64,000 bases of DNA from an uncultured Phycisphaerae bacterium. Its GTDB lineage: Bacteria > Planctomycetota > Phycisphaerae > Sedimentisphaerales > Anaerobacaceae. The stretch covers positions 588 through 64,587 of the forward strand of contig CAVSCO010000052.1 in assembly GCA_963726475.1 (NCBI GenBank), written 5' to 3'. Position numbers and translations under genes: made by a program. How positions within the stretch are numbered: position 1 is the stretch's first letter; each line of letters opens with the position of its first letter. This document shows positions 1,345 through 49,301 of this stretch, one piece after another. The notes below the pieces were generated by a model. It had not been told where the DNA came from. It did not search any database and saw nothing but the letters and a program-made list of their open reading frames with translations.

Positions 1345-1355
1345 GGGGGTGACGA

Positions 1356-3050: not shown

Positions 3051-3671
3051 TCCTACAACGATTGATTTCGCTTGAGCAAGAATTGACCCATCTGAGGCCG
3101 GTGTCGGCAGCAGCCTGGGTACTGATCTTCGTGAAGATGTTTCCGCAGATCACGTAAGTCAGCATCTGGTGGTTCGTATTGCCCTTCTGTTGTGTGCACC
3201 TTGGCTTCTTGTCGTCCCGTGCAAGAACGATAGCCAGCGTTCGCCCTCAGACGGTCCTGATAAGGGCTAGGACTGCCTGTTGGACATGTTTCCGAGCATT
3301 TGAGACTCTTGAGGGACAGCAGATGTAGTGAGAGCCGGGGTGGGGTGATTTCAGTTGTTCATGCCCTTTTCTTGCTGAAAAACGGCATTCTCCAGTGTAA
3401 GAATGCGTATCTTTACGTATTCGGAACAGCTCTCGTAGGGAAATCTCCTACAATCCATAATGGTGCAGTTGGCTGTGCGTCGGATTTGGAGGTCCGACCT
3501 TGTCTCATGGAGGACGGGTCACTTTGAGATCGAGGTTACGGAGAGGGTTATGCAGTGACACATCCATCTTCTCTCTCGGGACGTCCTTTGCCCAACATTG
3601 TGAGCCTATGACACTGTAGTGAATAACACGGAATAGCTAACGCTGAAAAATTCGGAGACGGGGAGAAGCAT

Positions 3672-4415: not shown

Positions 4416-4638
4416 TTACACACCGAAGACGAAAACTCAAGGGGCTGTGGACGTGAGCTTGCAGCCCTTCTTGGCTATTCTCGGGTAAATTGCGAAATCA
4501 CCCCAAAGGCATGTTCGTTCTAATGAGTGCCAGGATTGCCTGCTTGATATGCTCTGGTAACTCAGCCCAAGCAGCGACCATCTCAGCAAGCTCAGACGGT
4601 AGGTTATTGGTGTCGATTTGACCCTGTTTCCGGATTCA

Positions 4639-4660
4639 GGTGTCAACTGGGGTGTCAACT
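4639..4660 (+). repeat. Direct repeat GGTGTCAACT x2, candidate integrase arm-type sites
   Basis: Exact 10-mers at 4639-4648 and 4651-4660, about 55 bp inside the att core. Confidence 0.55.
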
Positions 4661-4712
4661 CCCCCTGCTCGATGTCGTAAGTACCTGTTTTTTCAGGGTT
4701 TGAGTCTGCCAT

Positions 4713-4762
4713 GCATCGGACTGTCGATCCGAAGGTTGAGGGTTCGAGTCCCTTCGGCCTCG
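4713..4762 (+). tRNA. tRNA-Asp(GTC) 3' fragment = attR (not a full tRNA)
   Basis: Anticodon arm TCGGA-CTGTCGA-TCCGA, T arm GAGGG-TTCGAGT-CCCTT, 3' acceptor strand CGGCCTC-G; no 5' acceptor strand (GAGGCCG) or D arm upstream. Confidence 0.9.
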
Positions 4763-4773
4763 TTCCGTAAGTT

Positions 4774-4807
4774 GAAGGCTGGCAGACATCTGTGTCTGCC
4801 AGCCTTC
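4774..4807 (+). terminator. Perfect 15-bp hairpin downstream of the tRNA fragment
   Basis: GAAGGCTGGCAGACA-TCTG-TGTCTGCCAGCCTTC. Confidence 0.7.
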
Positions 4808-5087
4808 TTCGTTTCCCGCCCGATCCAGGGTCGCTTGCCAGAACGTGCTCCGGAGCAGCATCGCGGGCGTGCCGTGCCCGATACGCGGTTCGCCGGACGC
4901 CCGCTTGCCGGTCAGTCGACATTCTCATTTCCGCTGACGACGCACGGTCGCCCCCTCTTGCACGATCCAGATCCCGACTTGCATGAAGTCGCAAGAATTG
5001 CTAATCTACGCCCTTCTGAGGCACTTCAAGCCCTGATTTGGAGCGTGGGAAAGCAATCCCTGATGGACCAGGAGTAGACGCTTATCG

Positions 5088-6908
5088 ATGGCTAGGAAAA
5101 AGCACGAGTACACGGATGATAAGGTTAAGACCCTCTCGTCACTGGAGCATATCCGCCTGCGTACAGGAATGTACATAGGCCGCACGGGTAACGGAGCCCA
5201 CTATGACGATGGAATCTACATCTTGCTCAAGGAAGTCGTCGACAATGCGGTCGATGAGTTCATCATGGGCCATGGCAAGAAGATCGACATCACCATCAGC
5301 GAAAACAGGGTGGCGGTGCGCGACTATGGGCGAGGTATCCCCTTGGGCAAGGTGGTAGAGTGCGTCTCGAAAATCAATACCGGCGCAAAGTACAATGACG
5401 ACGTATTTCAGTTCAGCGTCGGACTCAACGGGGTGGGCACCAAGGCAGTAAATGCCTTGTCCTCGAGTTTCGAGGTTTGCAGCTATCGCGAGGGCAAGTA
5501 TACCGAGGCCAAATTCGAATTCGGCAAACTGATCAAGCATAAGAAAGGTAAGGCCGACCAACCCAACGGCACCTTCGTGAGTTTCGTGCCGGATCCCAAG
5601 ATCTTCTCGAACTACGAATTCTCCGAAGAGCACATCGAACGGCGGCTTCGGTTCTATGCCTATCTGAACGCCGGCCTTCGTATTAACTATAACGATCGCC
5701 GTTTTCTGTCCAATGGCGGTATTCTGGACCTGATAGACGACGAGACCTCGTTTGAGAAAGTCTATCAGCCTCTACACTACCGTGACGCCACGCTGGAATT
5801 TGCCTTCACTCACACGAACCGGTTCAACGAAGACTACTATTCGTTCGTTAACGGTCAGCATACCAGCGACGGGGGAACTCACTTGAGCGGATTTCGCGAA
5901 GGCGTCTTGCGTGGCGTGAACGATTTCGCCAAGAAGAAGTTCAATGGTGATGACGTCCGTGAGGGTATGCTTGGTGCTATTTCGATCCGCCTGAAGGATC
6001 CGATATTTGAGAGCCAGACCAAGAACAAGCTGGGCAATACGGAAATCCGCTCGGAAATTGTCGCCCGCGTGCAGGAGGCCGTCATCAAGCTGCTGCACAG
6101 CGACAAGACGCAGGCCGACAAGCTGATCAATAAGGTCGTTGAAACGCAAAAGTTCCGCAAGGAACTCAATGCGGTCAAGAAGCTGGCGCGCGAGCGATCC
6201 AAGGCCATATCCATTCGTGTACCTCAGTTGCGCGACTGCAAGAAGCACTACGACCACGTCAAGCATCGGCACGAAGACACCATGATCTTTATCACCGAGG
6301 GTCAGTCGGCTGCCGGTTCCATCGTCAGTTGTCGGGATGTCAACACCCAGGCCATCTACACTCTCAAAGGCAAGCCTCTCAATGTGTGTGACCTCAAGAA
6401 GGATGCACTCTATAAGAACGAAGAGATCTTCAACCTTATGAAGAGCCTGGATATCGAGGAGAGCATCGACAATCTGCGATACAACCACGTGATTCTAGCC
6501 ACCGATGCCGACGTGGACGGCCTGCATATTCGCAATCTGATGATTACCTTCTTTCTGCGTTTCTTTCAGCCACTGGTGGAACGCGGCCACCTCGAGATCC
6601 TGGAAACGCCTCTCTTCCGCGTGCGGAACAAGAAAGAGAGCCTCTACTGCTATTCTGAGGCGGAGCGTGATTCAGCCATGAAGAAGCTGGGACGCGGCCA
6701 CGAAGTCACGCGATTCAAAGGTCTGGGAGAAATCTCCCCATCGGAGTTCAAAGCCTTCATCGGAAAGGACATGCGTCTGAGCCCGGTATCGACGTCCGGA
6801 GATCACGCCATCGACGAAACGCTGGCGTTCTACATGGGCAAGAACACGCAGGAGCGACGCAGTTACATCATGGACCAACTCGTTATCAGCGAAGAGATAC
6901 TCGTATGA
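5088..6908 (+). CDS. parE: Type IIA topoisomerase B subunit (topoisomerase IV ParE-like)
   Basis: EHIRLRTGMYIG, EVVDNAVDE, DYGRGIP, GLNGVG, TEGQSA, DADVDG, RFKGLGE; short 606 aa form. Confidence 0.9.
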   Translation: MARKKHEYTDDKVKTLSSLEHIRLRTGMYIGRTGNGAHYDDGIYILLKEVVDNAVDEFIMGHGKKIDITISENRVAVRDYGRGIPLGKVVECVSKINTGAKYNDDVFQFSVGLNGVGTKAVNALSSSFEVCSYREGKYTEAKFEFGKLIKHKKGKADQPNGTFVSFVPDPKIFSNYEFSEEHIERRLRFYAYLNAGLRINYNDRRFLSNGGILDLIDDETSFEKVYQPLHYRDATLEFAFTHTNRFNEDYYSFVNGQHTSDGGTHLSGFREGVLRGVNDFAKKKFNGDDVREGMLGAISIRLKDPIFESQTKNKLGNTEIRSEIVARVQEAVIKLLHSDKTQADKLINKVVETQKFRKELNAVKKLARERSKAISIRVPQLRDCKKHYDHVKHRHEDTMIFITEGQSAAGSIVSCRDVNTQAIYTLKGKPLNVCDLKKDALYKNEEIFNLMKSLDIEESIDNLRYNHVILATDADVDGLHIRNLMITFFLRFFQPLVERGHLEILETPLFRVRNKKESLYCYSEAERDSAMKKLGRGHEVTRFKGLGEISPSEFKAFIGKDMRLSPVSTSGDHAIDETLAFYMGKNTQERRSYIMDQLVISEEILV

Positions 6909-9419: not shown

Positions 9420-10493
9420 TCACACGAGTTCGACCTTGTCCCATTTGGTATGTACCGGCTGTGCCTTGACCAACGTGATATCGTTCTCTTTGAACTCGCG
9501 GACGATTTCGAGATTGATGCGTGTTCGGGTCTTCAGGTTAGAAGCCTCTGGCTTGATCCAGTACAACAGCATGATGTCCCGTGAGTACTCGGTAATGGCG
9601 AAGAAACCCGTAACGACCTTCTCCTGTGTATCCGGATCCGACTGGGCAATTCGTTTGAGCAGATCCATCGCCAGAGTGATTTGCTTGTCGTCCATGTCCG
9701 GCGTGAGTCGATAGACTGCAAAGATCTGACGCCCGTTCTCCGTATCGACGTTGACGATATCGGCCTCTGCCACTGCCAGGTTGGGGAGCGTGACGATCCG
9801 CCCCTCGTAGCGAGTTCGAATCCTCGTGCTCCGCAATCCGACGGCGGTCACCACACCGTCGTGGCCGCGTACCTGGATGCGGTCACCGACGCGGAAAGGT
9901 TTGTCGACAAAGATCGCCAGGCTACCGAAGAAGTTCCCAACAGAATGTTGGGCGGCCAAGGCAAAGGCCAGCCCTCCGATGCCCAGGCCCGCCAGCATCG
10001 AGAAGACATTAACGCCGGCCGTGTCCAGAGCCATGATCAAGCCAATGGTCCAGATAGAGGCTTTGATACCTTTACTGACGATCGGGACCAGGTGGTCGTC
10101 CAGATCGCTTTCGGTCTTCTTCGCGAAGGGCAGCAGATACTCTTTGATCAGGGCGTCGAACACGCGTGTGATCGACCAGGCGCCGTCGAGGATCAGCAAG
10201 GCACAGACGACCTTGTCGATATGGTCGCGAATCGCATCACTCATGTCGAGCAAGCTCAGGCCGTACCAGATCCCCATGACGACGACCGCCACGACGAAGG
10301 GCTCCTCCAGCATGTCGACGAGGATATCGTCGAGATGGGTCCGTGTCTTGGCGGCCATCCTCTTGACCGTGCGCCCGATGAGCCAGTAGATGACCCTTCC
10401 GACGACCAGGGATGCAACTACGATCGCAAAGGTGATCAGCCATTGCAGGACCGTATTGCCGTAGTAGGTTTTCGTGAGTATGATTTCCATCAT
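9420..10493 (-). CDS. MscS-family mechanosensitive channel
   Basis: Multiple TMs then AGLGIGGLAFALAAQ...DKPFRVGDRI...GLRSTRIRT...PN. Confidence 0.92.
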   Translation of the reverse strand: MMEIILTKTYYGNTVLQWLITFAIVVASLVVGRVIYWLIGRTVKRMAAKTRTHLDDILVDMLEEPFVVAVVVMGIWYGLSLLDMSDAIRDHIDKVVCALLILDGAWSITRVFDALIKEYLLPFAKKTESDLDDHLVPIVSKGIKASIWTIGLIMALDTAGVNVFSMLAGLGIGGLAFALAAQHSVGNFFGSLAIFVDKPFRVGDRIQVRGHDGVVTAVGLRSTRIRTRYEGRIVTLPNLAVAEADIVNVDTENGRQIFAVYRLTPDMDDKQITLAMDLLKRIAQSDPDTQEKVVTGFFAITEYSRDIMLLYWIKPEASNLKTRTRINLEIVREFKENDITLVKAQPVHTKWDKVELV

Positions 10494-10585
10494 CGCGACA
10501 AACTGCGAGCGAGTGTCACTCCCTGCAAAACACAAGGCTGCGACCGGTTCGGTCTAGACGCCGGCCGACACACCGAACGCGGAGC

Positions 10586-13351
10586 CTACCTGTCCTCCTC
10601 GGCCAATTCACTCAAGGGAATCTCCGAATCCAACAGGGCGTGGATGTCCGGACGACGGAGCATCGTGTCCAACGCCTTCAACTGGCTTTCGATTTCACTG
10701 AGGGTGGCGGCGTAGTAGAGCTCGGTATAGAAGTAGAATCGCGCCGTGTCGGCATCCACCACGTGGATCTGCCCTTTCTTGAGTTCGGGCATGAGCAGCA
10801 CTTTGCCGACGCTGAAATTCCGCAGTCGCATCTGCCTGATTCCGCCATTGAGGACGGCGACGCGCTTGAGCGTCAGCGCCCGCCGCAGGCGAGTGATGTC
10901 CGACTCGTTCTGGATCAGAATGGTGTGCCGTCTGCGTCCGTCGGCCAGAGGCTGATTCAATTCCCACAGTAACTTACTCCAGGTCGCCCGGTCCGGACAA
11001 TCGACCGTGCGAATCTCGGGAATCGGCTCGCTACCGAGACGGCCTTCTTCCATCGATGCACGATCGTACAGGTACGTGATCGCCAGGGCCCTACCGTCGA
11101 AATCCTTCATCCGGTCGCTCTTGCCCTTCATCACGAGATCGCGGAGGAACTTCACGTTGTACCCACCAACCTGCTGCCCCTCGAAGTAAATGATCTTCGA
11201 CGGATCGATCTGCTCATCAACATGCAGGCGCTTGATCACCTCGTAGATCATGCGCGAGACGAGGATCGATTCGCCCGGCACGCTGTCCCGCACAAATGCA
11301 CGGAACGGGGGCCTCTCGCCCAGCCGGAAATCCTTCTCGGCCACCTGCCGGGCCAGGTTCCGGTAGATCACGATGCGCCGGTTCCCCAGCAGGAAGCTCA
11401 GATCGAACACGTCTTCGCTGCGAATCCGATATGAATCGCGGAACAGCTCGTTTCCGAAGCTGTCGAAGTGATCCTCGTCCTTGGGAAGGGCCTGGCGAAT
11501 CTGCCGGTCCTCCGGCAATACATGCGGTGTCAGCACGATGATCACTTCACGTTTCAGCCGGTCCGTCTTCTCCGAACGGAACAACATGCCAACCATGGGG
11601 ATGTCGCCCAAGAGCGGGACCTTGTCCCGGGTCTCAGTCAATTCGCGCGAGACAAGACCGCCGATGATCAGCGGAGTGTTGTTCGGGATTCGCCCGTAGG
11701 TCTGTACCCGACGCGTCGAGATCGTGGGGGCCGAGGCCAATATCGTCCCATCGGGAGCTTTCATCTCCAGGTCTTCGCCAGGAACCCGGGCCGAGACGAT
11801 GGTATCGATGAGCATACTAACGTCCGAACCCGATTCGGTGATGCGAGGTCGAACGTTCAGGAGAATCCCGGTGGGCAGATACTCGAACTGGAAGCTAACC
11901 TTGTTGCCGTAACTGAGCCCCTCCATGCTACTAGCGATCGGAATGTCCTGACCGACGCGAATGGTGGATTGCCGGTTGTTCAACGTCAGCACGCTGGGAC
12001 GGGACAGGATTTCCGCTTTTCCGCTGCGGAGCAGGGCCCGGAGTGTGACCTCCCAATCCCATTGAAACGTCCCCGAAAGAATCTGGTGGATCTGCGATGT
12101 GTTGGTCAGGGTGGCATCAAAGGTCGAAGTGGCCTGGCCGGCCTCGGCCGTCGAACCGCCGGAGACACTCAGGTAGGGATTCTCGTGCAATTGCCAGTCG
12201 ACCCCCAGTTCTTTCAGCCCCTGTTCGCTGATCTCAAGCACCATGGCCTCGATAAAGATCTGGCGAGCCGGACGATCCACGTAGTTGTCCAATACCCGAC
12301 GGACTTCACTGAACTGCTCCGGGTGAGCCGGATGGAACAGCACCAGCAGTTGCGTCATGGGCGAGGCAATCGCGTTATCCGTCAGTTCCGATGCGCCGCC
12401 GGGCGCCATGGAGAGCTTGCCCTTCGAGCTGGTATCCTTCGAACCGACCAGCCCCGTATACTCCTTCTTAGGGTCTTCGATGTTCACAACATAGGGAAGC
12501 TTGGCGAACTCGATCTTGGGCGGCACTTCTTCCGGCTTGCCCATGGTCGTCACGCCGAAGCCCTTGAGCATGCTCAGCGCGGCCTTCGCATCCACATAGC
12601 TTAGTTGGATGATCTTGGCTTCGAGGTCCGTCACGGTCAGGTCCGTGCGCATCTTATCGAGAGAAGCGACGATCTCCTTGATCTTCGGCTCGACCTGAGC
12701 CAGGTCGGGATTCGCAGACAGGGTGCCGTCTTCTGCGACGATCACGCCCATTCCCCAGAACTGGGGTGGCTGGGAAACAAACATCCGATAGCCAAACCGC
12801 AGGACGTAGGTTCCACCGTCTCCCGACCGCGTCAGAATGGTGCCTCCAATAATGCCATCCGGCGGGGTCGGCAGTGCGTCGGCCACGGCACTTGACGCGA
12901 CTGCATAGCTGGACTGCACCCCCAGAGCCAGCGACAAGCGCTCGTTCATCTCGTTGATTTCCATCCGGCTAAGCTTGGGAAGCGCGATGATGCATGTCGA
13001 ATCAGGCGGCAGGGCTTTGGCCGTCGTCATGCTCAGTGCGTCGGCCACGCTCATCTTGGCCGGTGCGGCATTGGGGTCGGCAACGACACCCTGATTGGGG
13101 TCCTCTCCCCCCGAGTCGGCCGGAGCGGTGTTCGAGGCCGGTTCGGGTGTCGGAAGGTCGGCCGCTTCCAACGCCTTGGCGAACTCCTCCAACTGTGCAG
13201 GATCGTTCGCATCCACGATCACCCCGTTCTCCACACGTGGCTCTTCAAGTGATACGGTCCTGTCGGTTTCGACATGCGAAGCACAGCCGGCAAGTAACGA
13301 AAGACACACCAGCCCGGCAACCACCATCGACCGGGCTGCCCTCGCGGTCAT
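10586..13351 (-). CDS. Secretin (GspD/PilQ family) with lipoprotein signal and long C-terminal extension
   Basis: LSLLAGC lipobox; QIFIEAMVLE, AEILSRPSVLTLNN, IRVGQDIP, GILLNVRPRI, IIGGL, KVPLLGDIPMVGMLF, EVIIVLTPHV; start chosen from GAGGAGG RBS. Confidence 0.88.
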   Translation of the reverse strand: MTARAARSMVVAGLVCLSLLAGCASHVETDRTVSLEEPRVENGVIVDANDPAQLEEFAKALEAADLPTPEPASNTAPADSGGEDPNQGVVADPNAAPAKMSVADALSMTTAKALPPDSTCIIALPKLSRMEINEMNERLSLALGVQSSYAVASSAVADALPTPPDGIIGGTILTRSGDGGTYVLRFGYRMFVSQPPQFWGMGVIVAEDGTLSANPDLAQVEPKIKEIVASLDKMRTDLTVTDLEAKIIQLSYVDAKAALSMLKGFGVTTMGKPEEVPPKIEFAKLPYVVNIEDPKKEYTGLVGSKDTSSKGKLSMAPGGASELTDNAIASPMTQLLVLFHPAHPEQFSEVRRVLDNYVDRPARQIFIEAMVLEISEQGLKELGVDWQLHENPYLSVSGGSTAEAGQATSTFDATLTNTSQIHQILSGTFQWDWEVTLRALLRSGKAEILSRPSVLTLNNRQSTIRVGQDIPIASSMEGLSYGNKVSFQFEYLPTGILLNVRPRITESGSDVSMLIDTIVSARVPGEDLEMKAPDGTILASAPTISTRRVQTYGRIPNNTPLIIGGLVSRELTETRDKVPLLGDIPMVGMLFRSEKTDRLKREVIIVLTPHVLPEDRQIRQALPKDEDHFDSFGNELFRDSYRIRSEDVFDLSFLLGNRRIVIYRNLARQVAEKDFRLGERPPFRAFVRDSVPGESILVSRMIYEVIKRLHVDEQIDPSKIIYFEGQQVGGYNVKFLRDLVMKGKSDRMKDFDGRALAITYLYDRASMEEGRLGSEPIPEIRTVDCPDRATWSKLLWELNQPLADGRRRHTILIQNESDITRLRRALTLKRVAVLNGGIRQMRLRNFSVGKVLLMPELKKGQIHVVDADTARFYFYTELYYAATLSEIESQLKALDTMLRRPDIHALLDSEIPLSELAEEDR

Positions 13352-13898
13352 CAACCGGAGAAAACCTCCTCTTGGCATGCAGCGAGGGCCAACCACAGCG
13401 CGATATCCGGCGGTCCCTGGCGAAGGACATGTCTGTACGTGTCTTTGCAGTGTGCTGATGTGCGTCATTCCTCGGCCCTCAATCATGGAGATACAATTGA
13501 TGCACCGTATTCAGTCCGTGGCAATTGAAATCACAGAGGTCCAACCCGGTATCGTCCTCACGAGAGGTTCGAAGGAGGTGGCCACCTACGAACGACGTAG
13601 ACCGATGATGATCACCGGCCGATTCGCGCGTCACCGGTACCATTATATGAGGACCCGTTTTGAAAAGTACAGCAGAATATTCTTGACCATTCTTGTGACT
13701 CAGCGACACTGGTGACAATTTGTCTTGCGCGAAAACAGCTCACGGGTGGGCCGAATTCTGTGCAGTGGCAGCGTCGGCGTGCTTGGACAGTCGGAAACGC
13801 GCATCTCCCGGCAGGATGGCACGCACAAGCGCATCCCACGCATGGTGGCTTCACCCCCATGACGCGAACTCTCAATGTGATACTCGGAGGCAACATCA

Positions 13899-14742
13899 AT
13901 GCACACGCACAGGAGTCTGTTTGCCTGCGTCCTACTTTCATTCGCTCTCGTGTCGGTCGGATGCAGGGAAGCCTGCGATCCTCAGGCGGTTCTCCGCATC
14001 ATCACATTTCCCAACGAGTGGGTAGGAGACATAGACAAGATAGGATTCAATGAGCCGTCAGGAGTCTGTTGGCATGCGCAAAGAGGAACGCTCTTCGTCG
14101 TCGGCGACGAGGGCGACCTCTGTGAGATCACTTCCACAGGCGACCTGGCCAAGCAAGAGCACATTCGGGACGCGGACTTCGAAGGTGTAACATACGATCC
14201 AGCGACGGGTTTGGTGTACCTGGCAGTCGAAGAAGAGGAAGCGGTCCTGGAAATCGACCCGAATACGTTTGCCGTCCTCCGCGAGTTCTCCTTGCCTCGG
14301 GACTTCCGGGGGCAAACTCGGCTGCGAGCCGGTGGCGAAGGAATCGAAGGCATCACATTCGTGCCCGATCCACACCATGCCGAGGGGGGCCTGTTCTACG
14401 TGGCGAATCAGGCCTTCACCCTGACCGACGAGCAGGACATCTCGGCCATTTTCGAGGTGGAATTGCCGCTTCGCAGTCGGACGGGCGAACCCAGAATCAC
14501 CGGGTGCACGAGGCCGGGCATCATCGATCTCTCGGGCCTCAACTACGACCCGACGACAGACCGCATCCTCGTGATTGGCGACGCCACCAACTTGATCATG
14601 GAGTATTCACGCAGACTGGGTCCTCCTGAGCGTCCAGGCCTTCCCGGGTGACAATCAGGAAGGCGTCACGGTCGATCCGGACGGGTTCATCTACATCGCC
14701 CAGGATTCCGGAGGGATCGTGAAGCTCAAGTGGCTTCGCTGA
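13899..14742 (+). CDS. YjiK/SdiA-regulated-like beta-propeller (frameshift near 14620)
   Basis: EPSG, DFEGVT, GIEGIT, DLSGL repeats; last blade NQEGVTVDPDGFIYIAQDSG in another frame ends at 14742. Confidence 0.8.
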
Positions 14743-14759
14743 GCTTGTCCGCCCGGACC

Positions 14760-17000
14760 TCAGGACGCCTTGAAACTCGACTTCAAATTCGGCGCACAGA
14801 ACGCCATGGCAATCAGGGCATCCTCTTGTTCGATGTGACACTCCTCACCGTCGAGAGACCCGCTGTGTTTGCGCGGATTCATGATCACCTGGTCTTCCCG
14901 GCGGATGCCCAGCAGGATCACGGGATTGTTGTCGTCACTGCACTGGTACAACAGCCGGGCGCATTCCGCAAACGTCTTGCCCACAAAGGCATCGGGGTAC
15001 GACTCGGGAGGAATGACGTAGATTTCGTTGCCCTCGAACGAATACGTCAGCAGGTCCTTGTATACCACTGACAACTGCTTGTTCACCGCACAGTGGGCGA
15101 GGATACCGACGCCGATCTCCGTCGTACAGATAGTTTCATCGGCCCCTGCATCGCGCAGGTGCAGGCTGTTGTCGGAATTGACCACCTCGGCGATGATATG
15201 CGGCCTTCTCCGCTTGCACTCGCTGAGCAACGCCAGGATGATCATCGCGGACTTGGCGTCAGGATCGGGGCTCTGGCTGTCCGCCAGCACGATGATCGTA
15301 TCGGCCTGGCTTACCATGGCCTTCTTCAGGGTCCCGTGCCTGATGGGATCGTCGTTGATGCAATAGATGTTATCGAACTCGGGAATCCGCAGCAGCGCCC
15401 TCTCGTCCAAGGTTTTGTTGTCGATGATGACGATGTCTGCATCGGGCTTGCCCTCCGGATGGCGCAGTTCGCTGATGACCCTCTTGCCCCGTTCGTTCCA
15501 GTTGCAGATAACGATATGGTCGTTGAGATTCTTGGGCATCTTGATCTCCTCTCTCTTGAGGAACGCCGCCGCAAACCGGCCGGCCACGGCACCGAAGAAG
15601 AATACGCTGAGGACGAAAATAAGCACGGAAATCGCACGGCCCGCCCATGTGACGGGGTAGCGATCCTCGAACCCGCTGAATAGATAGACCGTGATCGACC
15701 AGAACGACTCGGGAACACTCTCGAACGACCGGTTCTGATACCGCTCGCAGAAGTACATCGCCAGGGTCCCGATCACATAGAGGCCGATGAAGACCAGCGC
15801 CAGACGCACGTGGATATGCCTTTGCGTCATGCGACGGAACAGCGTCCTGTATTTGATGGCATAGCCGAGGACAGCAGCGATCGCCAGGGTCCATAGAATC
15901 GTCGGCAAATAGTCGCGCAGGGTCTTCTTGAGAAGGCCTTGTTCATTGAAATATGCGCGGGCCTGAGGGTGCAGCGGGATGATGGGTCTCATCTTCTGGT
16001 CGAGCACACCGTACAGACCTTCATGCAACGAGATTTGGCATCCGGTGAGATCGGCGCCTTCGACGCCGTGTTCCTTCCGAATGACGTCCCTCTTCTCAAA
16101 GATCACGCGTGTCAGGGTGCGGATGAAATCAGGCGGGACTTTCCCGCCGTGGACCTTCGAATCCTCGAAGCCCCGACGGGCCACGAGGATCGCTCGCACG
16201 CCCACGGTGTGAACCGGCTCGGCCTGTCCCCGGTAGGTGTCGGCCGGTATGAAGGTGTAGACGAAATAGGGAAAGGCCCGGATCAAGCGATTGGCCAGCG
16301 CCTCGTTGATCGGGACAACGGTAATCTGGTCTTGCAGCGAAATGCCGTTGATGGTTTCGGTCAGCAGAGGCGTGGGGATACCCGCGGTGACGAACGCCGC
16401 GTCGAGCGAATTGTCCAACAGCATCTCCCGTGCCTCGGAGAACTTGCATCGGACGTCCGTCAGGTCCGCCGCTTCCCACCCGTCCAGAGCAAAAATGCGC
16501 GTAGCGCTGTTGCTGATGTTCTCGGGTGGAGAGCCCGTGCGAATTCGACGACCCTTCAACTGGTCCAGGTGCTCGATCCCGCTCTTGCGCGTGGCGATGA
16601 TCTGGATCAACTCCGTATACAGCGAAGCGACGGCCAGGGCCTTGCTGGACGGCAGGCTGAACATCAACTCGCCATGGCTGAAATAGTAGACGGTGTCGTT
16701 CTGAGCCAGGGCCAGGTCGACCTGCTCGTGATCGATCAGCCGCAGATTCTCGAGGGTTCCGGTCGTCACAACCACTTCAACGGACACTTGACCCGGGTAG
16801 GCTTCCTCGATCACCTTCTTGATGCCGCAGCCTATGGGATAGTAGACCCCGGTCGTGCTTCCCGTCGCGAGGCGAATCGTCACCGGCTGGGCCGATGCTG
16901 CACCCACCAGCAAACCACACACGACCAGGAAGAAGACCAGAATGCTCCGGCAGGACAACGTCCCCGTAGCCTCCAAGCTCTGCAAGTGATCTATGCTCAT
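14760..17000 (-). CDS. Fusion: TAXI-family solute-binding domain + 2TM/pore-loop ion channel + RCK domain
   Basis: LATGSTTGVYYPIG...GTLENL...LALAQND...LYTE...IPLHPQARAYF (TAXI); ESFWSITVYLFSGFEDRYPVTWAGR (pore); HIVICNWN...DAKS...HIIAEV...GADE (RCK); one uninterrupted ORF. Confidence 0.9.
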   Translation of the reverse strand: MSIDHLQSLEATGTLSCRSILVFFLVVCGLLVGAASAQPVTIRLATGSTTGVYYPIGCGIKKVIEEAYPGQVSVEVVVTTGTLENLRLIDHEQVDLALAQNDTVYYFSHGELMFSLPSSKALAVASLYTELIQIIATRKSGIEHLDQLKGRRIRTGSPPENISNSATRIFALDGWEAADLTDVRCKFSEAREMLLDNSLDAAFVTAGIPTPLLTETINGISLQDQITVVPINEALANRLIRAFPYFVYTFIPADTYRGQAEPVHTVGVRAILVARRGFEDSKVHGGKVPPDFIRTLTRVIFEKRDVIRKEHGVEGADLTGCQISLHEGLYGVLDQKMRPIIPLHPQARAYFNEQGLLKKTLRDYLPTILWTLAIAAVLGYAIKYRTLFRRMTQRHIHVRLALVFIGLYVIGTLAMYFCERYQNRSFESVPESFWSITVYLFSGFEDRYPVTWAGRAISVLIFVLSVFFFGAVAGRFAAAFLKREEIKMPKNLNDHIVICNWNERGKRVISELRHPEGKPDADIVIIDNKTLDERALLRIPEFDNIYCINDDPIRHGTLKKAMVSQADTIIVLADSQSPDPDAKSAMIILALLSECKRRRPHIIAEVVNSDNSLHLRDAGADETICTTEIGVGILAHCAVNKQLSVVYKDLLTYSFEGNEIYVIPPESYPDAFVGKTFAECARLLYQCSDDNNPVILLGIRREDQVIMNPRKHSGSLDGEECHIEQEDALIAMAFCAPNLKSSFKAS

Positions 17001-42280: not shown

Positions 42281-43564
42281 CTAACCAGTCTTCAGGGCGA
42301 CTTTGTTGGCGCCGTCGACGAAGATGATCTGGACGTCGGGGTTTTCGGCGAGCCAGGCGTCGATGATGGCCTGAGGGTCGTGGGCGGGATAGAGATGGGC
42401 CGCTTCGACTTGGTTATCGGGAATCTGCGTGTGCATCCAGAGGCGTCGCAGCCGCTTGATCATCAGGGCGAACTTGTAGGGCTTGTGACTGTACAGGACG
42501 TAATCCTGCTGGATCGACTGGATGACCTCCTCGAGCGGAGGCGTCAGGCGGTCGTAGAAGTTCGCCAGCGTCTGCGGCTCGCCAATACCCTTGGGACAGG
42601 CCGCCAGGAACAGGACCTCCCCGCCATCGAGCACGGCAGCCCGGTTCAATTCCAACGCCCGCTGCGCGATGTACAGATCATCGTCGTTGGGCAACCCGCC
42701 CGGCGCGACGACCAGGCGTGTCGCCGGCGTCACCGTACGAATGTTCCGCTCGTCGGTGACGCGGAAAGCCTCGCCGCTGGCCTCCGCAATGGGCCCAAAC
42801 CGCGACCAGATCAGCTGTCGTGCAGCACTGATCATCGTCAGCGCATAGATTGGCCTGCCCTTGGCGATCAGCTCCATGCCCTCGACCTGATCCTCTGCCA
42901 CGGGTTGCGTTCGTCGCTTGGGATCGGGGTGCCATGGATGAGCCCCATGCGTGGATTCATCGAGGAGGGCCAGGCTGTGGTTCTGCTCGACGGTGCGAAA
43001 CGCACAGATGCCAGGCAGGAAATTCTTAACCGGATTCGAATAGCCCGAGAAGTAGTGGACCTTCACATCCGAGATCACGAGGAAGACATCGGCTTCCTCG
43101 GCCAACTTGCTGACCAGAACCTGCGTCCCACGCGACGTCCGGCCGACATCCAGGAATTCGTCCGCCTGGCAATCATGAGCGTGGATTCGCGTCACGGTCA
43201 GGCCCGCATCCCTGCCGACTCTTTCAACCTCCTGGCGGATCTGCTCGTTCTTCGGCGTCTCGGCAATATGGGTCCCCGTGCAGATCATAAACTGCACCGA
43301 AGCGGCCTGCTTCAGCATGTCGCATAAGGCCGACAACACATAGGCCAGAGGTTCATCCCGCGAGCCGTCGTCAAGCAGCACGCACACCCGCTTGCCGGCC
43401 ACGTCGTCGGGAAACGTCCCGGCCTGGCCTGCGATGGTTTCCCTCAGGTCCCCTGACGCCTCCTGAGTCCCCTCCCCATGCCAGGGCTCGATGATCTCCT
43501 GTACGTTTCGATCCGGCACCCGCAACGAAACCACGCCCGCTCCATAATGAAGATCCACGTTCAT
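42281..43564 (-). CDS. LarA-superfamily (DUF2088) racemase/epimerase
   Basis: DDGSR, TGTH, HDC, GRTSRGT, HYFSGYSNPVK..LPG, NH, PGGLPND..LY. Confidence 0.85.
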   Translation of the reverse strand: MNVDLHYGAGVVSLRVPDRNVQEIIEPWHGEGTQEASGDLRETIAGQAGTFPDDVAGKRVCVLLDDGSRDEPLAYVLSALCDMLKQAASVQFMICTGTHIAETPKNEQIRQEVERVGRDAGLTVTRIHAHDCQADEFLDVGRTSRGTQVLVSKLAEEADVFLVISDVKVHYFSGYSNPVKNFLPGICAFRTVEQNHSLALLDESTHGAHPWHPDPKRRTQPVAEDQVEGMELIAKGRPIYALTMISAARQLIWSRFGPIAEASGEAFRVTDERNIRTVTPATRLVVAPGGLPNDDDLYIAQRALELNRAAVLDGGEVLFLAACPKGIGEPQTLANFYDRLTPPLEEVIQSIQQDYVLYSHKPYKFALMIKRLRRLWMHTQIPDNQVEAAHLYPAHDPQAIIDAWLAENPDVQIIFVDGANKVALKTG

Positions 43565-43950
43565 GCCATCCCTCACAAATCCACGTCAGCACCATGTTCA
43601 TCTGTGCAACTCTTCCCACTGGGTCTCATGCAACGATTGTCAGCATTCCAGGCAGCGTGGGCAAGGGGAATCTTCCGCCAGGCGGCGATCGCAGAGTGTA
43701 TCTCCCGGTCTGCCGAGTTTCATCAGGCCGACCAAGACGCCGTAATGGATGCGACTATCCAGCCAAACGGGTGCGAACCATGTTTTGACCAGGTCGTAAG
43801 GAAAACACCTTGAATCGTGGAATTCTTTCGTGTATGTAGGGGAGCCAATGGGTGGTTGTCCATCCGGGGGTGGGCAAGACTCACGAGAACGCCTTTGATG
43901 GGCATTGGAGTTTCAAAAACAGGCTGTTTTGTACGTGGAGGTATATCAGA

Positions 43951-44632: not shown

Positions 44633-45646
44633 TCACCTCTCGAATCCGCTGAGAAAGCTGTGCACGCAATCGCCTAAGACGTCTGTATTGTAGCCGCCTT
44701 CCTGGCAGATCAGCGTCGGCAGATCGAGGGACGCGAGCCGCACGCCGATCTTCTCGTAGTCTGTCGTCTGAAGCGCGAATCCCCCGATCGGATCGGTCTG
44801 GTGCGTGTCGAAACCGGCAGCGATGATGAGGTAGCTCGGGCCAAAAGCCTGCACAGCCTTACAAAACTTGTCGATGGCCTCTAGATAGCTTTTGGCATCG
44901 GCCTTCATAGCAAGTGGCAAGTTCAAATTCGTACCCTGTCCCTGCCCCTTGCCTTTCTCGTCGGCATACCCCCAGAAGTAGGGGTACTCAACACTAGGGT
45001 CTCCATGGATGGAACTGGTGAAGATGTACTTGCGCTCTTCGAAGAACTCCTGCGTGCCGTTACCGTGATGGTAGTCAATGTCGAGGATCGCGACCGTTCC
45101 GGACGGCGCGAGGAACTCCGCGGCCGTCGCCACATTGTTGAAATAGCAGTACCCCCCAAACACGCGCGGTCCAGCGTGGTGCCCCGATGGGCGACACAGC
45201 GCATAGACGACCCGCTCGCGACCGGAGAGAACCAGTTCGGCCCCCGTCAGAGCCGTCTCGGCCGACGCACGCGCCACCGCGTAGGTCTTCTTCATGATCG
45301 GCGTGACGGCATCGGTACACCATTGCCCCCCCCACAGGGGTTCGTCGACCCGCCGACGTAGCCGCGCGCCGTCGCCGGGGAAGAGATCCGGATAGAACTC
45401 CTCGTCCTCCTCGCGCAAGCTGGCGGCCGTCTTCTTGATGTAGTCATGGTAGGGATGGAGCCGGGCAATCAACGACTCAGAGAACTTCTTGGCCCGAACG
45501 AATTGGTAGCCATCGTCGGCATGCAGCCGCTTCTTTATCGCCTCCACACGACGAGGTGTGTCTTTGACCTCGTAGGAGGACGGCCCCAGTTGAAACTTCC
45601 AGTAAGGGTTGTGCAGGCTGTCGTTGTATTTCTCAATGACTTTCAT
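44633..45646 (-). CDS. Histone-deacetylase family, acetylpolyamine amidohydrolase-like
   Basis: CRPSGHHA, GGYCYFNN, LDIDYHHGNGTQ, SIHGDP..YPYFWG, GFDT..DP, QEGGY. Confidence 0.9.
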   Translation of the reverse strand: MKVIEKYNDSLHNPYWKFQLGPSSYEVKDTPRRVEAIKKRLHADDGYQFVRAKKFSESLIARLHPYHDYIKKTAASLREEDEEFYPDLFPGDGARLRRRVDEPLWGGQWCTDAVTPIMKKTYAVARASAETALTGAELVLSGRERVVYALCRPSGHHAGPRVFGGYCYFNNVATAAEFLAPSGTVAILDIDYHHGNGTQEFFEERKYIFTSSIHGDPSVEYPYFWGYADEKGKGQGQGTNLNLPLAMKADAKSYLEAIDKFCKAVQAFGPSYLIIAAGFDTHQTDPIGGFALQTTDYEKIGVRLASLDLPTLICQEGGYNTDVLGDCVHSFLSGFER

Positions 45647-47789
45647 GAACGGTCCTTCCTTTGGCGAGTTCCTCGACGACCTCCTCCTGGCTGATCGCGG
45701 ACGCCCAGCGGTCTTTTCGCCCAGCCATGCCACTGGAACAGAAGATCGCATTGAGTACAGATTCCTCCGTGGCTTCAATGACAGCCTCATAGACGTCATT
45801 GATGTGTGCGTCCGAGATACATTTGAGCCTAATGAACTTATCCGACAGATGGGAGGGTCTTTCGGTGCGGTTGGCCGTGCTGAAGGCCACGATGATTTCA
45901 CCGCTGCTCGACGCGGCGTGCGAGCCCACGCGCCCCAGTCCCAGCGCAGCGCGCTTCGCGATCCGGCCGAGCTGACTGCTCAGCAGCGGCACATCCGTCG
46001 CCACCACCACGATGATAGAGCCTTCCGATTGCGTGCGGCGGCCCTCCTGGCTATGGAGACCATCCAACGCACGTCCGACCACGCTTCCCTCGATCGTCAG
46101 ATTTCGCATCTTGCCGAAATTGGAGAGTACAAGCACGCCGACAGTGAAGGTGCCCTCCGCAAGACAGAAGCTGCGGGAGGACGTGCCGATGCCCCCGGCG
46201 AAATCACACGTGATCATTCCCGTGCCGGCTCCGACTGAGCCCTGAACCACCGGTCCGGAATTGGCTGCTTCGATCGCGCGGATCGCATCCTGCGACGTGC
46301 ATGTCCCCACCCGCACATCATTGAGAAACGAATCGTCCGTCTCGCCCACCACCGGAATCACGACGTCCGTTTCGGTTCCCAGTTCCGGGTACTTCTTACT
46401 CATGTGGGCAATCACGCCGGCGTGGACCTTTCCGACTGAATGGGAATTCGTCAACAGAATCGGGCTCTCCAGCCAGCCCCACTCCATGACTTGGGTGAGC
46501 CCCAGCATTTCTCCGACGCCGTTGAGCACGAATCCGCCGGCTACCAGGCGTTTCGTATACGCGCGCCCGGCCGGGAGAATCGCGGTGACTCCGGTGCGAA
46601 CACTCGATGTCTCCTGGAGGCCGGGAACCTGCACATTGTCTTCGATGCGCGTCAGGTGCCCGACACGAACGCCCTTGACATCGGTGATGCTGTTTAACAC
46701 ACCAGGGTGCATGCGGCCTACGCGGATTCCCAACTCTCTGACCGTGGGACGCGGCGCACTGATAGCCGGCCCTGACGGAATCGCAGCCTTTCGGATCGGA
46801 CGCAGAGCCAACCCGTATCGCCGGGCGGCAGATCGAATGATCAGCCGCATCACATTCTTGAAGTCAAGCCCCTTCACACCGGCCGCCGTCATCAATGAGG
46901 CCACCGGATGCAAGCTGGGCAGCGGATTGAGTTCGATGAAGAAAGGCTGCCCATTCTCGTGCAGGCGGATATCCACACGTCCCATGTCCGGGCACGACAT
47001 GATCTCGAAGACGCGCTGAGCCATATCCAGGACGCCGGCCTCCTCCTCGAGGGTGATGGTGGCCGGACAGACCACCTGTACGGCCGCCGCAGAGGCCCCT
47101 CCTTGTTTCATCTCGTAGTCAAAGATATTGTAACGCGAATCCAGACGGGACAGGTCGAATGTATGTTCGACAATACTCAGCACCTTCCCGGGATAGGCTT
47201 CGAGAAAAGGCACGCTGAGCTCCTTGCCCGCGATGAACTCTTCCACGATGATCCCCGCCGGGTACTCGTGCAGGATCGACTCGATGCGTTGGCGTGCCGC
47301 GACCTCGTTCTCTACCACGGAGTCCTTTGTGATGCCTTTGCTGGAGCCTTCCGAATTCGGTTTGATCATCAGCGGGTACTGAAGATCTTCGGGAAGTGCT
47401 TGGTCCGGCTTCGCGATCAACACGCCACGTGGAACGCGTACGCCTCGAGAGGCCAGAACCGTCTTGGCCAGGTGCTTGTCGAGATTCAGATGCAGAAGTG
47501 AAGCGTTGCCACCGGTGAACGGAATACCCAACTGCTCATAAAGCCCGGGATAGAAGGCTTCGCGCGAACTGCCGATCGTGCCTTCGGCCACGTTGAAGAT
47601 CAGGTCGGGTTCGCTGGCCAGCAGCCGGTCCACGATGTCGTTGGGGCGTCCTGAAACCTCCACGTCTGCGACCGTATGGCCGAGATCGGCGATGGCCTCT
47701 CGAATACGACCGACATCTTCGCTGCTGAGCAGTTCGGCGGTCTTCTCACTGTCGTCGGTGCGCAAGTTATAGGCAATCGTGATTCTCAT
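45633..47789 (-). CDS. Fusion: D-Ala-D-Ala-ligase-like ATP-grasp + DmpA/S58 Ntn peptidase
   Basis: FNVAEG, IPFTG, DK, IKP.SEGSSKGI, EEFI.G.E, RVDIR, ELNPLP; then NSITDVKGVRVGH, TGVT, NGVGE, VVGETDD, GAGTGM, GGIGTSSR, SNFG, EG|SIIVVVATD, SSGE. Confidence 0.92.
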   Translation of the reverse strand: MRITIAYNLRTDDSEKTAELLSSEDVGRIREAIADLGHTVADVEVSGRPNDIVDRLLASEPDLIFNVAEGTIGSSREAFYPGLYEQLGIPFTGGNASLLHLNLDKHLAKTVLASRGVRVPRGVLIAKPDQALPEDLQYPLMIKPNSEGSSKGITKDSVVENEVAARQRIESILHEYPAGIIVEEFIAGKELSVPFLEAYPGKVLSIVEHTFDLSRLDSRYNIFDYEMKQGGASAAAVQVVCPATITLEEEAGVLDMAQRVFEIMSCPDMGRVDIRLHENGQPFFIELNPLPSLHPVASLMTAAGVKGLDFKNVMRLIIRSAARRYGLALRPIRKAAIPSGPAISAPRPTVRELGIRVGRMHPGVLNSITDVKGVRVGHLTRIEDNVQVPGLQETSSVRTGVTAILPAGRAYTKRLVAGGFVLNGVGEMLGLTQVMEWGWLESPILLTNSHSVGKVHAGVIAHMSKKYPELGTETDVVIPVVGETDDSFLNDVRVGTCTSQDAIRAIEAANSGPVVQGSVGAGTGMITCDFAGGIGTSSRSFCLAEGTFTVGVLVLSNFGKMRNLTIEGSVVGRALDGLHSQEGRRTQSEGSIIVVVATDVPLLSSQLGRIAKRAALGLGRVGSHAASSSGEIIVAFSTANRTERPSHLSDKFIRLKCISDAHINDVYEAVIEATEESVLNAIFCSSGMAGRKDRWASAISQEEVVEELAKGRTVHESH

Positions 47790-48105
47790 GCAAGCCACTT
47801 TCCGCCCAAAGATAACGCTAGGCTCTCACCGTCTACTCAGATGTCAGCCAGGATCTGCATTAGGTCGCCCTGAAGACAGGGGGCCTGCCCATGGTATCCG
47901 GACCACTCGCTGCAATGTATGTTCTCCCCGAGACAATCGCCACAAGAATCACTGGGGAGACCACTGAAAACGTCACCGGGCAGGTGCCATATCGAGGTGA
48001 TCAATATTGCAGGGCCGGAAATTGAGTAGGCCGGTCGCGCCCTTGTGAGACGACCGAAACGCAGTCCGTTCGGCTCGGAGGCGGACCTGGATCGCCTGAG
48101 AGGCT

Positions 48106-48600
48106 TCACTGGCTCTTTCTAAAGCGGCGAGTGAGGATGGCGTCGAAGGACCAGAGACCGGCACCGACGATGAGCAGAAACAGCGAGCCACAGAGCATGC
48201 AGAAGTCAGTCCGTGACTCGTGCGCCATCGCCCAGAATCCGTAGCGTGAAAGGTCGCGGACCTGGAACCCCCAGAAACCGTGTCCCAGGAGAATGGGGAT
48301 CTTAGTCGAGAGGATCGCGACAGAGATGTTGACGCCCAGGACCAGGCCGGCCAGACGCGTCAACAGGCCCAGCACGATCAGAACTCCAAAACCGATCTCC
48401 ACGCAGGCGACGAAGTACGCCAGCACCTCGGGCATCGCAAACCCGATCCGCTCGAAGCGACCGGGTCCCAGCGCCGCCGGATAGAGAAACTTCTGAATCC
48501 CCTCCGAGAGGAACACCAGCCCGACCATCAGCCGCACCAAGATTGTCGCCCGCGGCGCGCCGGTCTGCAACACCATGGCAGTCATCGATCGCATCATCAC
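48106..48600 (-). CDS. DoxX-family membrane protein
   Basis: RLMVGLVFLSEGIQK, EI..G.LI.LGL.TR, GAG.WSFD. Confidence 0.88.
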   Translation of the reverse strand: MMMRSMTAMVLQTGAPRATILVRLMVGLVFLSEGIQKFLYPAALGPGRFERIGFAMPEVLAYFVACVEIGFGVLIVLGLLTRLAGLVLGVNISVAILSTKIPILLGHGFWGFQVRDLSRYGFWAMAHESRTDFCMLCGSLFLLIVGAGLWSFDAILTRRFRKSQ

Positions 48601-49301
48601 GCTTCCATCTTCGGTGTGTAGGTGTCGAGATCGTAGATTCCAAGCTGCTTTTCGATGTCACTGACCTGCATCACAATCTTATGGAATCCGCCCTCCCCTA
48701 ACGCCAGGTCCTCTCTGTCTTCGAACTGCTCGCCCAGTTCCATGTACCGCTCCGGCGGAACCAGATCGTGAAAGGCGCGGAACGCGACGGAGTTCTCGCT
48801 CGCGATATGGGGAAGGTACATATGGCTGAACGACCGCAGAGAATTCGCCACACGTTTGGGATCGGCCATCATGTCGGCCTCGGACATCGCCAGCACCCTG
48901 GCCGAAATCTCCCGACCGACGATATGCTGCCGCCGCAGAATCCGGGTCAACTCGACGTGTTCACCGGCTTGCTCCAAACGCGGAAAGACATATTGCTCTT
49001 CCAGCTTCTCGTGATATTTCTCGCTGAAATCTCGCATGAGGCCCACGGCGGCGAGGATGGACTGCGTGGGGATATGCTGATCACTCTCGATCCGCCGCAC
49101 CGCCTCGTCGTAGATCAGCAGCAACCGCTCGATGACTCCGTGCTCGAACATCAGGTCTTCGGCAGGCGTCACCTCGTGACTTCGCTTATCCTCCTCGGAG
49201 GACATCCCCGCTTTGGCCTGCCCGTCGAGAATGACACCGGCGCCCGTTGCACCAGCCATGGTAATAAAACTGCGTCGATTCATACGGCTTGCGCGTTCCA
49301 T
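48597..49301 (-). CDS. Tat-exported hemerythrin/HHE-domain protein
   Basis: NRRSFI twin-arginine motif; EHG, HEKLEE, QH, HIASEN ligand pattern. Confidence 0.82.
   Translation of the reverse strand: MERASRMNRRSFITMAGATGAGVILDGQAKAGMSSEEDKRSHEVTPAEDLMFEHGVIERLLLIYDEAVRRIESDQHIPTQSILAAVGLMRDFSEKYHEKLEEQYVFPRLEQAGEHVELTRILRRQHIVGREISARVLAMSEADMMADPKRVANSLRSFSHMYLPHIASENSVAFRAFHDLVPPERYMELGEQFEDREDLALGEGGFHKIVMQVSDIEKQLGIYDLDTYTPKMEA

Follow-up and report, generated by a model that had tools for sequence, protein, structure and literature searches.

We describe a two-gene cassette in a stretch of 64,000 nucleotides from an uncultured Phycisphaerae bacterium (GenBank assembly GCA_963726475.1, contig CAVSCO010000052.1, positions 588 to 64,587; the whole stretch is called the window below). 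The first gene encodes an ATP-grasp ligase, resembling D-Ala-D-Ala ligase (Ddl), that is fused in one chain to a peptidase of the S58 family. The second gene, which overlaps the first, encodes a zinc-dependent deacetylase of the acetylpolyamine amidohydrolase (APAH) type. The cassette occurs almost only in genomes that make N-epsilon-acetyl-beta-lysine (NeABL), and from its sequence and genomic company we favour, with about even confidence, the reading that it would be a make-and-break amide system acting on beta-lysine or NeABL.

Two overlapping genes encode a ligase-peptidase fusion and a deacetylase

An initial annotation of this DNA, made from the letters alone, had proposed an ATP-grasp ligase fused in frame to a full S58 domain. 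We found both Pfam domains (Peptidase_S58, E 6e-105; Dala_Dala_lig_C, E 3e-29) in a single frame, which is open from 45633 to 47798 on the minus strand. As the consensus of the homologues begins MRITIAYN, we place the start at the ATG at 47789, which gives a protein of 718 aa. The motifs quoted in that annotation could all be located: FNVAEG at residues 65-70, SSREA at 74-78, ELNPLPS at 286-292, and EG/SIIVVVATD (the slash marks the predicted cleavage), with Gly590-Ser591 encoded at 46017-46022. The stop and start codons, read from the sequence, likewise confirm the overlap of 14 nt with the downstream gene, in which the HDAC-family zinc-binding and catalytic motifs were found as described (RPSGHH, DIDYHHGNGTQ, AGFD and EGGY). 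The same overlap geometry is seen in six relatives (L001, L003, L004, L005, L012 and L013; L, G and C numbers are our handles for loci, genomes and contigs). The features, all on the minus strand, are as follows.

45633-47789 (-): fusion gene, ATP-grasp plus S58/P1 aminopeptidase, 718 aa and stop (Pfam and NCBIfam matches; more than 120 full-length homologues)
46800-47789 (-): Ddl-like ATP-grasp domain, residues 1-330 (alignment to E. coli DdlB; residue invariance in 120 homologues)
46695-46799 (-): Pro/Ala-rich interdomain linker, about residues 331-365, 35 residues (low conservation; low confidence in the structure model)
45708-46694 (-): Peptidase S58 domain, DmpA/BapA-type N-terminal nucleophile, residues 366-694 (PF03576, 351 bits; PDB relatives)
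46017-46022 (-): Gly590-Ser591, predicted autoprocessing site and nucleophile (alignment to the Gly/Ser site of DmpA; invariance)
45633-45646 (-): 14-nt overlap between the fusion TGA (45635-45633) and the deacetylase ATG (45646-45644) (read from the sequence)
45653-45659 (-): Shine-Dalgarno-like GGAAGGA within the tail of the fusion gene, 7-13 nt 5' of the deacetylase ATG (read from the sequence)
44633-45646 (-): gene of the HDAC/acetylpolyamine-amidohydrolase-type zinc deacetylase, 337 aa and stop (PF00850, 222 bits; APAH structures)
45176-45193 (-): RPSGHH, catalytic His-His motif of the deacetylase (alignment; motif definition in PMC11532494)
45050-45082 (-): DIDYHHGNGTQ, deacetylase motif with zinc-binding Asp and His (alignment)
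44780-44818 (-): AGFD, with the third zinc ligand, followed by DPIGG at the PIS 'gatekeeper' position (alignment; PMC11532494)
44690-44701 (-): EGGY, catalytic Tyr motif of the deacetylase (alignment; PMC11532494)

The cassette is conserved across phyla, rare and co-inherited

A homologue search over 5.8 billion proteins returned 585 relatives of the fusion, and all conservation figures below refer to the best 120 of them. Every one of these 120 is 700-740 aa long, has the same two domains and is 68-100% identical to the window protein; 187 positions of the alignment are invariant. Their hosts belong to Kiritimatiellia, Acidobacteriota, Spirochaetota, Fidelibacterota, Calditrichota, Bacteroidota (Draconibacterium, Marinilabilia, Sunxiuqinia), Desulfobulbaceae (Electrothrix) and other taxa. 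We considered the possibility that the fusion is an assembly artefact and rejected it, since the best 120 homologues carry the same fusion, across many phyla and with invariant catalytic residues.

The cassette is rare and patchy, being present in about 0.3-0.5% of the sampled genomes: the fusion was found in 2 of 401 genomes of the window's phylum (the window's own and G399, at 55% identity) and in 1 of 301 genomes of the phylum of G403 (G403 alone). The identity between phyla, near 70%, together with an integrase gene that L013 carries 1 kb away from its cassette, points to horizontal spread. This gene, of the phage integrase family, lies at 11128-12201 of L013, downstream of the cassette in a metagenome-assembled genome (MAG) labelled Pirellulales, and fits mobility of the unit.

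We also checked if the deacetylase is linked to the fusion elsewhere. The two travel together, and their identities to the window fall in parallel (ATP-grasp/S58/deacetylase, 89/87/87% in L013, 74/74/70% in L004, 66/64/59% in L009 and 51/59/36% in L171); the fusion and the deacetylase are inherited jointly and diverge in step. Beyond these two genes, no third neighbour is conserved in a sample of about 18 true fusion loci, and we therefore take the cassette to consist of the two genes alone. In the full text of the searchable literature, beyond whose reach one relevant amidoligase survey lay, we found no account of the fusion or of NeABL turnover.

Most cassette carriers encode the NeABL pathway

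Methanogens and many anaerobic bacteria use NeABL as a major compatible solute. NeABL is made by AblA, a lysine 2,3-aminomutase, followed by AblB, a beta-lysine acetyltransferase; to our knowledge, only this two-step synthesis has been described, and we know of no turnover or further conversion of NeABL. The window's genome (G000) encodes both enzymes on contig C50, at 768 bits for AblA and 318 bits for AblB (cut-offs of the curated models, 525 and 205 bits). The osmolyte cluster on that contig (L085: 5405-9996, minus strand) comprises AblA, a sodium:solute symporter (SSF), AblB and a Sir2-family deacylase; the symporter stands between ablA and ablB, as it does in L029, and the sirtuin gene follows directly 3' of ablB.

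We compared the 16 genomes that have the fusion with an adjacent deacetylase with the other 399 genomes of the phylum sample. AblA scored above its cut-off in 13 of the 16 carriers versus 12 of the 399 others (odds ratio about 140, Fisher p 2e-15, for genomes that are not phylogenetically independent). AblB was above its cut-off in 14 of the 16, the other two being a near-miss at 198.7 bits and a fragment at a contig edge. The association is asymmetric: most AblA-positive genomes (the 12 in the phylum sample) are without the cassette, yet nearly all cassette genomes have AblA and AblB. Such a pattern would be expected of an accessory module dependent on the product of AblA and AblB.

At some loci the link is physical. 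The gene order is fusion-deacetylase-AblA in L003, AblB-fusion-deacetylase-major facilitator superfamily (MFS) transporter in L007 and, on a single strand, fusion-deacetylase-AblA-SSF-AblB in L029. The last (10001-16793) is the closest relative, at 90% identity, and comes from a long-read MAG riddled with frameshifts, with matches split over three frames, so that its gene order is reliable and its per-gene identities are not. Over 159 fetched loci (2.08 Mb), a KamA-family gene lies within 1.5 kb on the same strand in 9, versus about 0.2 expected. The search for neighbouring aminomutase or GNAT genes that the initial annotation had suggested thus gave a positive answer: AblA, AblB or KamA-family genes adjoin the cassette or its split and double-ligase relatives, in addition to the genome-wide co-occurrence.

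Related operons combine the same enzyme classes

Such relatives are found in Myxococcota and Bdellovibrionota, where a protein of about 700 aa with two Ddl-like ATP-grasp domains is followed by a separate S58 gene. An AblA-like aminomutase (478-505 bits) is encoded directly upstream of this pair in L055, L065, L117 and L121, while a KamA-family gene stands between the ATP-grasp and S58 genes in L053 and L075 and directly upstream of the S58 gene in L054. An AblA-like gene is present in 20 of the 22 genomes that have the double-ATP-grasp and S58 system.

A second operon has the order TetR, AblA-like aminomutase, GNAT::HDAC fusion of about 600 aa, ATP-grasp (L166, 4195-8879; L167, 3186-8298; a similar one in L168, 2830-8357). 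Its hosts belong to the taxonomic order of the window's organism, apart from one Holophagae MAG. Neither NCBIfam nor BLASTP identifies the N-terminal domain of these roughly 600-aa proteins as an AblB orthologue. Fusions of the GNAT::HDAC type, with lengths of about 600 and 750 aa, are widespread, for instance in Desulfobacterales and Geoalkalibacter. Finally, in about 30 of the 401 genomes of the window's phylum, a conserved operon joins the gene of an AblA-like aminomutase, which at 470-515 bits narrowly misses the AblA cut-off, to Ddl-like ATP-grasp genes, one or two in number and tandem or fused, as in L172 (G232:C9:24930-28297) and L173 (G336:C596:16555-20361); the genes that come next in L172 encode an outer-membrane efflux protein and a CstA peptide transporter. 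The same set of enzyme classes (aminomutase, Ddl-like ligase, S58 peptidase, acetyltransferase and HDAC-type deacetylase) thus reappears in combination, across several architectures that are independent of one another.

These operons bear on two other explanations of the cassette. One is storage: the ligase might condense beta-lysine or NeABL, at the cost of ATP, into beta-peptide oligomers or a beta-lysyl conjugate, leaving fewer osmotically active particles after a salt downshift. On an upshift the S58 domain would trim or release monomers, or make primers, and the deacetylase would tune charge, feed in beta-lysine or toggle the epsilon-amine between its protected and free states. The AblA/AblB evidence speaks for such a capacitor in the same way as for simple make-and-break chemistry on beta-lysine, DmpA and BapA are able to form beta-peptides as well as cleave them (PMC9235088), and the presence of two ATP-grasp domains in some relatives implies that ligation occurs more than once. 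We nevertheless regard it as improbable: such a polymer or oligomer is not known, the fusion has a single ligase domain, the cassette includes no primer or carrier gene, and the sequence carries no sign of processivity.

The other explanation is modification of a protein or peptide. ATP-grasp enzymes from other clades modify proteins, and the ligase could, as RimK or LysX do, attach a beta-amino acid to a carboxylate on a protein or ribosomal peptide, with the S58 domain and the deacetylase reversing or maturing the mark. The aminomutase-dependent beta-lysylation of EF-P (NCBIfam EpmB model) is a precedent for a beta-lysine mark. The aminomutases that adjoin these systems, however, score as AblA-like and not as EpmB, no conserved small open reading frame (ORF) or carrier-protein gene accompanies the cassette in the neighbourhoods of the loci, and the ligase belongs to a small-molecule branch (see below), all of which makes this explanation very improbable.

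The ligase domain keeps catalytic residues and replaces specificity residues

We aligned the ligase domain with E. coli DdlB. The residues for binding of ATP and Mg and for phosphoryl transfer are retained, namely K105, K143, E183, E190, K228, R271, D273, E286 and N288 (DdlB K97, K144, E180, E187, K215, R255, D257, E270 and N272), and all of them are invariant in the homologues. The equivalents of DdlB Glu15 and Ser150, in the site for the first substrate, are retained as well. In contrast, the specificity residues His63, Glu68, Tyr216, Gly276, Ser281 and Leu282 of DdlB are replaced by E69, R76, Q229, S292, A297 and S298, and the replacements are themselves invariant. As the catalytic residues are kept and the specificity residues are not, the domain should still form an acyl phosphate from an amino-acid-like carboxylate, with substrates that differ from those of Ddl.

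With the curated Ddl families TIGR01205 and NF002378, the domain scored 143.5 bits against a cut-off of 243 and 115.6 bits (118 in the genome scan) against a cut-off of 245.65. A phylogenetic tree joins it, at support 100/100, to the N-terminal domain of the double ligases and separates it from E. coli Ddl, and by sequence we assign it to a small-molecule branch of Ddl-like ATP-grasp enzymes. A canonical Ddl of 267 bits is encoded on a separate contig of the same genome (G000:C58). We therefore rejected the housekeeping D-Ala-D-Ala ligase as an identity for the fusion, given its scores under the cut-offs, the replaced specificity residues and the presence of this separate enzyme. Two more non-canonical Ddl-like paralogues are encoded in the genome (G000:C74, L082: 1396-3429, and G000:C21, L083: 1510-2694, both on the minus strand); they score 122-140 bits, also under the Ddl cut-offs, and one of them is a 677-aa methyltransferase::ATP-grasp fusion.

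The same data address a role in cell-wall or D-amino-acid metabolism, in which the ligase would make D-Ala-D-Ala or D-Ala-D-X and the DmpA-like D-aminopeptidase would recycle peptidoglycan peptides. The nearest families by name, Ddl/VanA and 'D-aminopeptidase', and the retained first-substrate residues would suit such a role. It is hardly credible, however, in view of the low Ddl scores, the six invariant replacements, the canonical enzyme encoded elsewhere, the absence of mur or fts genes nearby and the small share of sampled genomes that carry the cassette.

The S58 domain has an intact putative autoprocessing site

The match of the second domain to PF03576 (351.5 bits, gathering score 23.9) covers positions 1-305 of the 307 of the profile. 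Among solved structures, the uncharacterised Pyrococcus protein 2DRH is closest (E 4.5e-80), followed by DmpA 1B65 (E 9e-67) and BapA 3N2W (E 7.5e-59). Ser591 falls on the nucleophile of DmpA in the 1B65 alignment, within ERG/SIIVVLATD. Gly590 and Ser591 are invariant in the homologues, as are N557, G559, S629 and G630, and the invariant positions include the equivalents of DmpA Asn218 and Ser288-Gly289. By sequence the domain thus appears to be a genuine member of the family, full-length and with a Gly/Ser site that would place the nucleophile at the predicted new N-terminus. Homologues of the S58 domain that stand alone (L026-L028 and L031) have unrelated housekeeping genes as neighbours at those loci.

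The linker has 10% invariant columns versus 27-29% in both domains. An AlphaFold2 model of the fusion has a predicted local distance difference test (pLDDT) score of 82.5 overall, falling below 50 at residues 331-343, and a predicted template modelling (pTM) score of 0.54, with each domain well modelled. Because the Pro/Ala-rich linker is poorly conserved and disordered in the model, the ligase and S58 domains are probably tethered rather than rigidly packed.

The deacetylase is APAH-like with variant motifs

The product of the second gene matches Hist_deacetyl (PF00850; E 1e-65, 222 bits) and has the zinc ligands Asp, His and Asp, the catalytic His-His pair and the Tyr of the HDAC fold all in place. 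Its best solved relatives are the APAHs 6PHR (E 2e-65) and 9GKZ (E 1e-64), and its nearest longer relatives are GNAT::HDAC fusions. Bacterial polyamine deacetylases form 'cluster 4' of a 2024 survey (PMC11532494), defined by the motifs RPPGHH, EGGY and PIS and by a small-molecule active site restricted by the dimer. The window enzyme keeps EGGY, has RPSGHH in place of RPPGHH and PIG in place of PIS, and matches with Ile at the gatekeeper position. Its sequence thus points to an APAH-like small-molecule deacetylase with slightly variant motifs.

This likeness is the argument for an aminoacyl-polyamine, whereby the deacetylase would free a polyamine amine, the ATP-grasp domain would attach an amino acid to it and the S58 domain would remove it, comparable to glutathionylspermidine synthetase/amidase (GspSA). 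The nearest solved relatives and the EGGY and gatekeeper Ile shared with cluster 4 agree with this. No recurrent genes of polyamine biosynthesis or acetylation were found near the cassette in the neighbourhoods of the loci, however, and a polyamine leaves both the AblA/AblB and AblA-like enrichment and the adjacency of these genes unexplained. We consider this explanation unlikely; the substrate of the deacetylase is probably not a polyamine. The alternatives named in the initial annotation, a beta-amino acid or a polyamine used for instance as an osmolyte, are thus separated by the AblA/AblB context: it favours the beta-amino acid and the osmolyte, whereas the polyamine gains nothing beyond the APAH-like fold.

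A possible amide cycle on beta-lysine

If the cassette acts on beta-lysine, the ATP-grasp domain would activate the carboxylate of this beta-amino acid as an acyl phosphate. Its substrate would probably be the epsilon-acetylated form, because the free epsilon-amine of an unprotected beta-lysyl phosphate could close a ring with the activated carboxylate. The activated NeABL or beta-lysine would then be coupled to an amine, giving a beta-lysyl amide or peptide. The APAH-type enzyme would deacetylate the epsilon-amine, acting either on NeABL or on the product of the ligation. The S58 domain would cleave itself between Gly590 and Ser591 and, once processed, would hydrolyse, or possibly transfer, the N-terminal beta-aminoacyl residue, freeing beta-lysine again. 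The net effect would be an exchange between the osmolyte pool and a beta-lysyl conjugate. We have less confidence in the order of these steps than in the link to beta-lysine; the substrate, the acceptor amine, this order and the physiological purpose, be it turnover, buffering or conversion of the osmolyte pool, are what we infer here.

The initial annotation had supposed that deacetylation would expose the acceptor amine; genomic context suggests, rather, that the acetyl group in question belongs to the epsilon-amine of beta-lysine. AblB and the deacetylase share an operon in L007, and GNAT and HDAC domains are fused elsewhere, which suggests that acetylation and deacetylation act at different stages, the acetyl group being a transient protection of the epsilon-amine during activation of the carboxylate. 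NeABL resembles N-acetylputrescine with a carboxymethyl branch and, judging by this structure, is a plausible substrate for an APAH-like pocket. The chemistry has precedents in both directions, as the S58 enzymes DmpA and BapA hydrolyse and can form beta-aminoacyl peptides and carnosine synthase is an ATP-grasp enzyme that produces a beta-aminoacyl dipeptide (PMC9235088). Because both domains keep every catalytic residue in the 120 homologues, the amide is plausibly both made and broken; to this extent, which is as far as sequence reaches, the make-and-break idea of the initial annotation stands.

Several observations weigh against this use of beta-lysine. In the window's genome the abl genes are not adjacent to the cassette but on contig C50, and about 15 of the 18 cassette loci with usable flanks have no adjoining abl gene. 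The genes that do flank the cassette are heterogeneous (MASE3 sensor, SIS/CBS, RnfD, fucosidase, sulfatase, integrase, MFS). Three carriers, all of which have AblB, are without AblA above the cut-off: G404 and G406 (about 264 bits each) and G407 (512.6 bits). The co-occurrence with AblA and AblB could also stem in part from a shared saline, anoxic habitat. The AlphaFold2 model has no defined interface or confident arrangement between the ligase and S58 domains, and, unless regulated, a ligase and a hydrolase that share one target bond would run a futile cycle.

The cassette combines known enzyme families into a bifunctional architecture that is new and into what is probably a new pathway. The pair is highly conserved (about 70% identity across phyla) and mobile, and always unites an ATP-dependent amide former, a beta/D-aminopeptidase and an acetyl-amine hydrolase. 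Solving its reaction would probably reveal new beta-lysine metabolites and would explain why a ligase is fused to a peptidase. The ligase clade would define a new specificity class of Ddl-like enzymes, with the signature EG...R / Q229, and the S58 enzymes, which are of biotechnological interest for the synthesis of beta-peptides, would gain their first physiological context. Should the capacitor prove true, it would amount to a previously unknown form of turgor buffering and an unknown class of beta-lysine metabolites across many anaerobic phyla. The function is directly testable, since cultured carriers exist: Draconibacterium halophilum, Marinilabilia salmonicolor, and Sunxiuqinia and Oceanispirochaeta isolates.

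Neighbouring genes in the window

Upstream of the cassette and on the same strand, at 47837-49301 (-), lie genes for a hemerythrin with a Tat signal, a DoxX protein and a 90-aa ORF without a family, with overlapping stops and starts; this trio is missing at other cassette loci. On the other side, at 42281-43576 (-), is a homologue of LarA-like nickel-pincer-cofactor racemases (top match malate racemase LarAH6, 179 bits, cut-off 500 bits), which is not kept beside the cassette elsewhere. None of the flanking ORFs of the window (120-aa, 180-aa, LarA-like, 90-aa, DoxX and hemerythrin) has a counterpart at the other cassette loci compared. Positions 1-6000 of the window have a G+C content of 0.49-0.53, against about 0.60 in the remainder, and may be foreign or otherwise atypical DNA.

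Comparison with known systems

In GspSA a CHAP amidase is joined to its own synthetase domain, and the substrates are glutathione and spermidine. The fusion resembles it by analogy of functional logic, in that an ATP-dependent synthetase of amides and a hydrolase for amides of that class share one chain. There is no homology, however: with Pfam the fusion shows Ddl-like ATP-grasp and S58 domains only, and no CHAP or Gsp synthetase domain.

In pyrrolysine synthesis, PylB, a radical-SAM lysine mutase, supplies a rearranged lysine to the Ddl-like ATP-grasp ligase PylC. This is the logic of the operons that combine an AblA-like aminomutase with an ATP-grasp gene, but the mutase family and the product are different and there is no S58 or HDAC partner.

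With DmpA, BapA and 2DRH (MEROPS S58/P1) the S58 domain shares full-length homology, the Gly/Ser site and the equivalents of the catalytic Asn and Ser-Gly. The S58 enzymes that have been characterised split amides with an N-terminal beta- or D-aminoacyl residue and are also able to form them (PMC9235088). The window domain differs in its setting, as the second half of a 718-aa protein that begins with a ligase, and its self-cleavage is a prediction. A similar division of labour is seen between carnosine synthase (ATPGD1), in which an ATP-grasp enzyme forms a beta-aminoacyl dipeptide, and carnosine-cleaving DmpA and BapA, in which S58 enzymes hydrolyse it (PMC9235088). Those, however, are separate, unlinked enzymes of different organisms, which handle beta-alanine and not beta-lysine, and no deacetylase is involved.

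With DdlB and VanA the ligase shares the ATP-grasp fold, all residues for ATP, Mg and phosphoryl transfer, and the equivalents of Glu15 and Ser150. It differs in scoring under every curated Ddl cut-off, in having EG.....R in place of HG..GEDG, in the replacement of Tyr216, Gly276, Ser281 and Leu282, and in falling into a separate clade with the N-terminal domain of aminomutase-associated double ATP-grasp proteins. The bacterial APAHs of Marinobacter subterrani (6PHR) and Mycoplana ramosa (3Q9B), and 9GKZ, share with the window deacetylase the zinc and catalytic motifs, EGGY and the gatekeeper Ile; the window enzyme departs from them in RPSGHH and PIG and in always being translationally coupled to the fusion.

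Finally, the cassette lies outside the described two-enzyme AblA/AblB pathway, and most AblA-positive genomes are without it. It is nevertheless tied to that pathway, both enzymes of which score above their cut-offs in the window's genome and adjoin the cassette in relatives.

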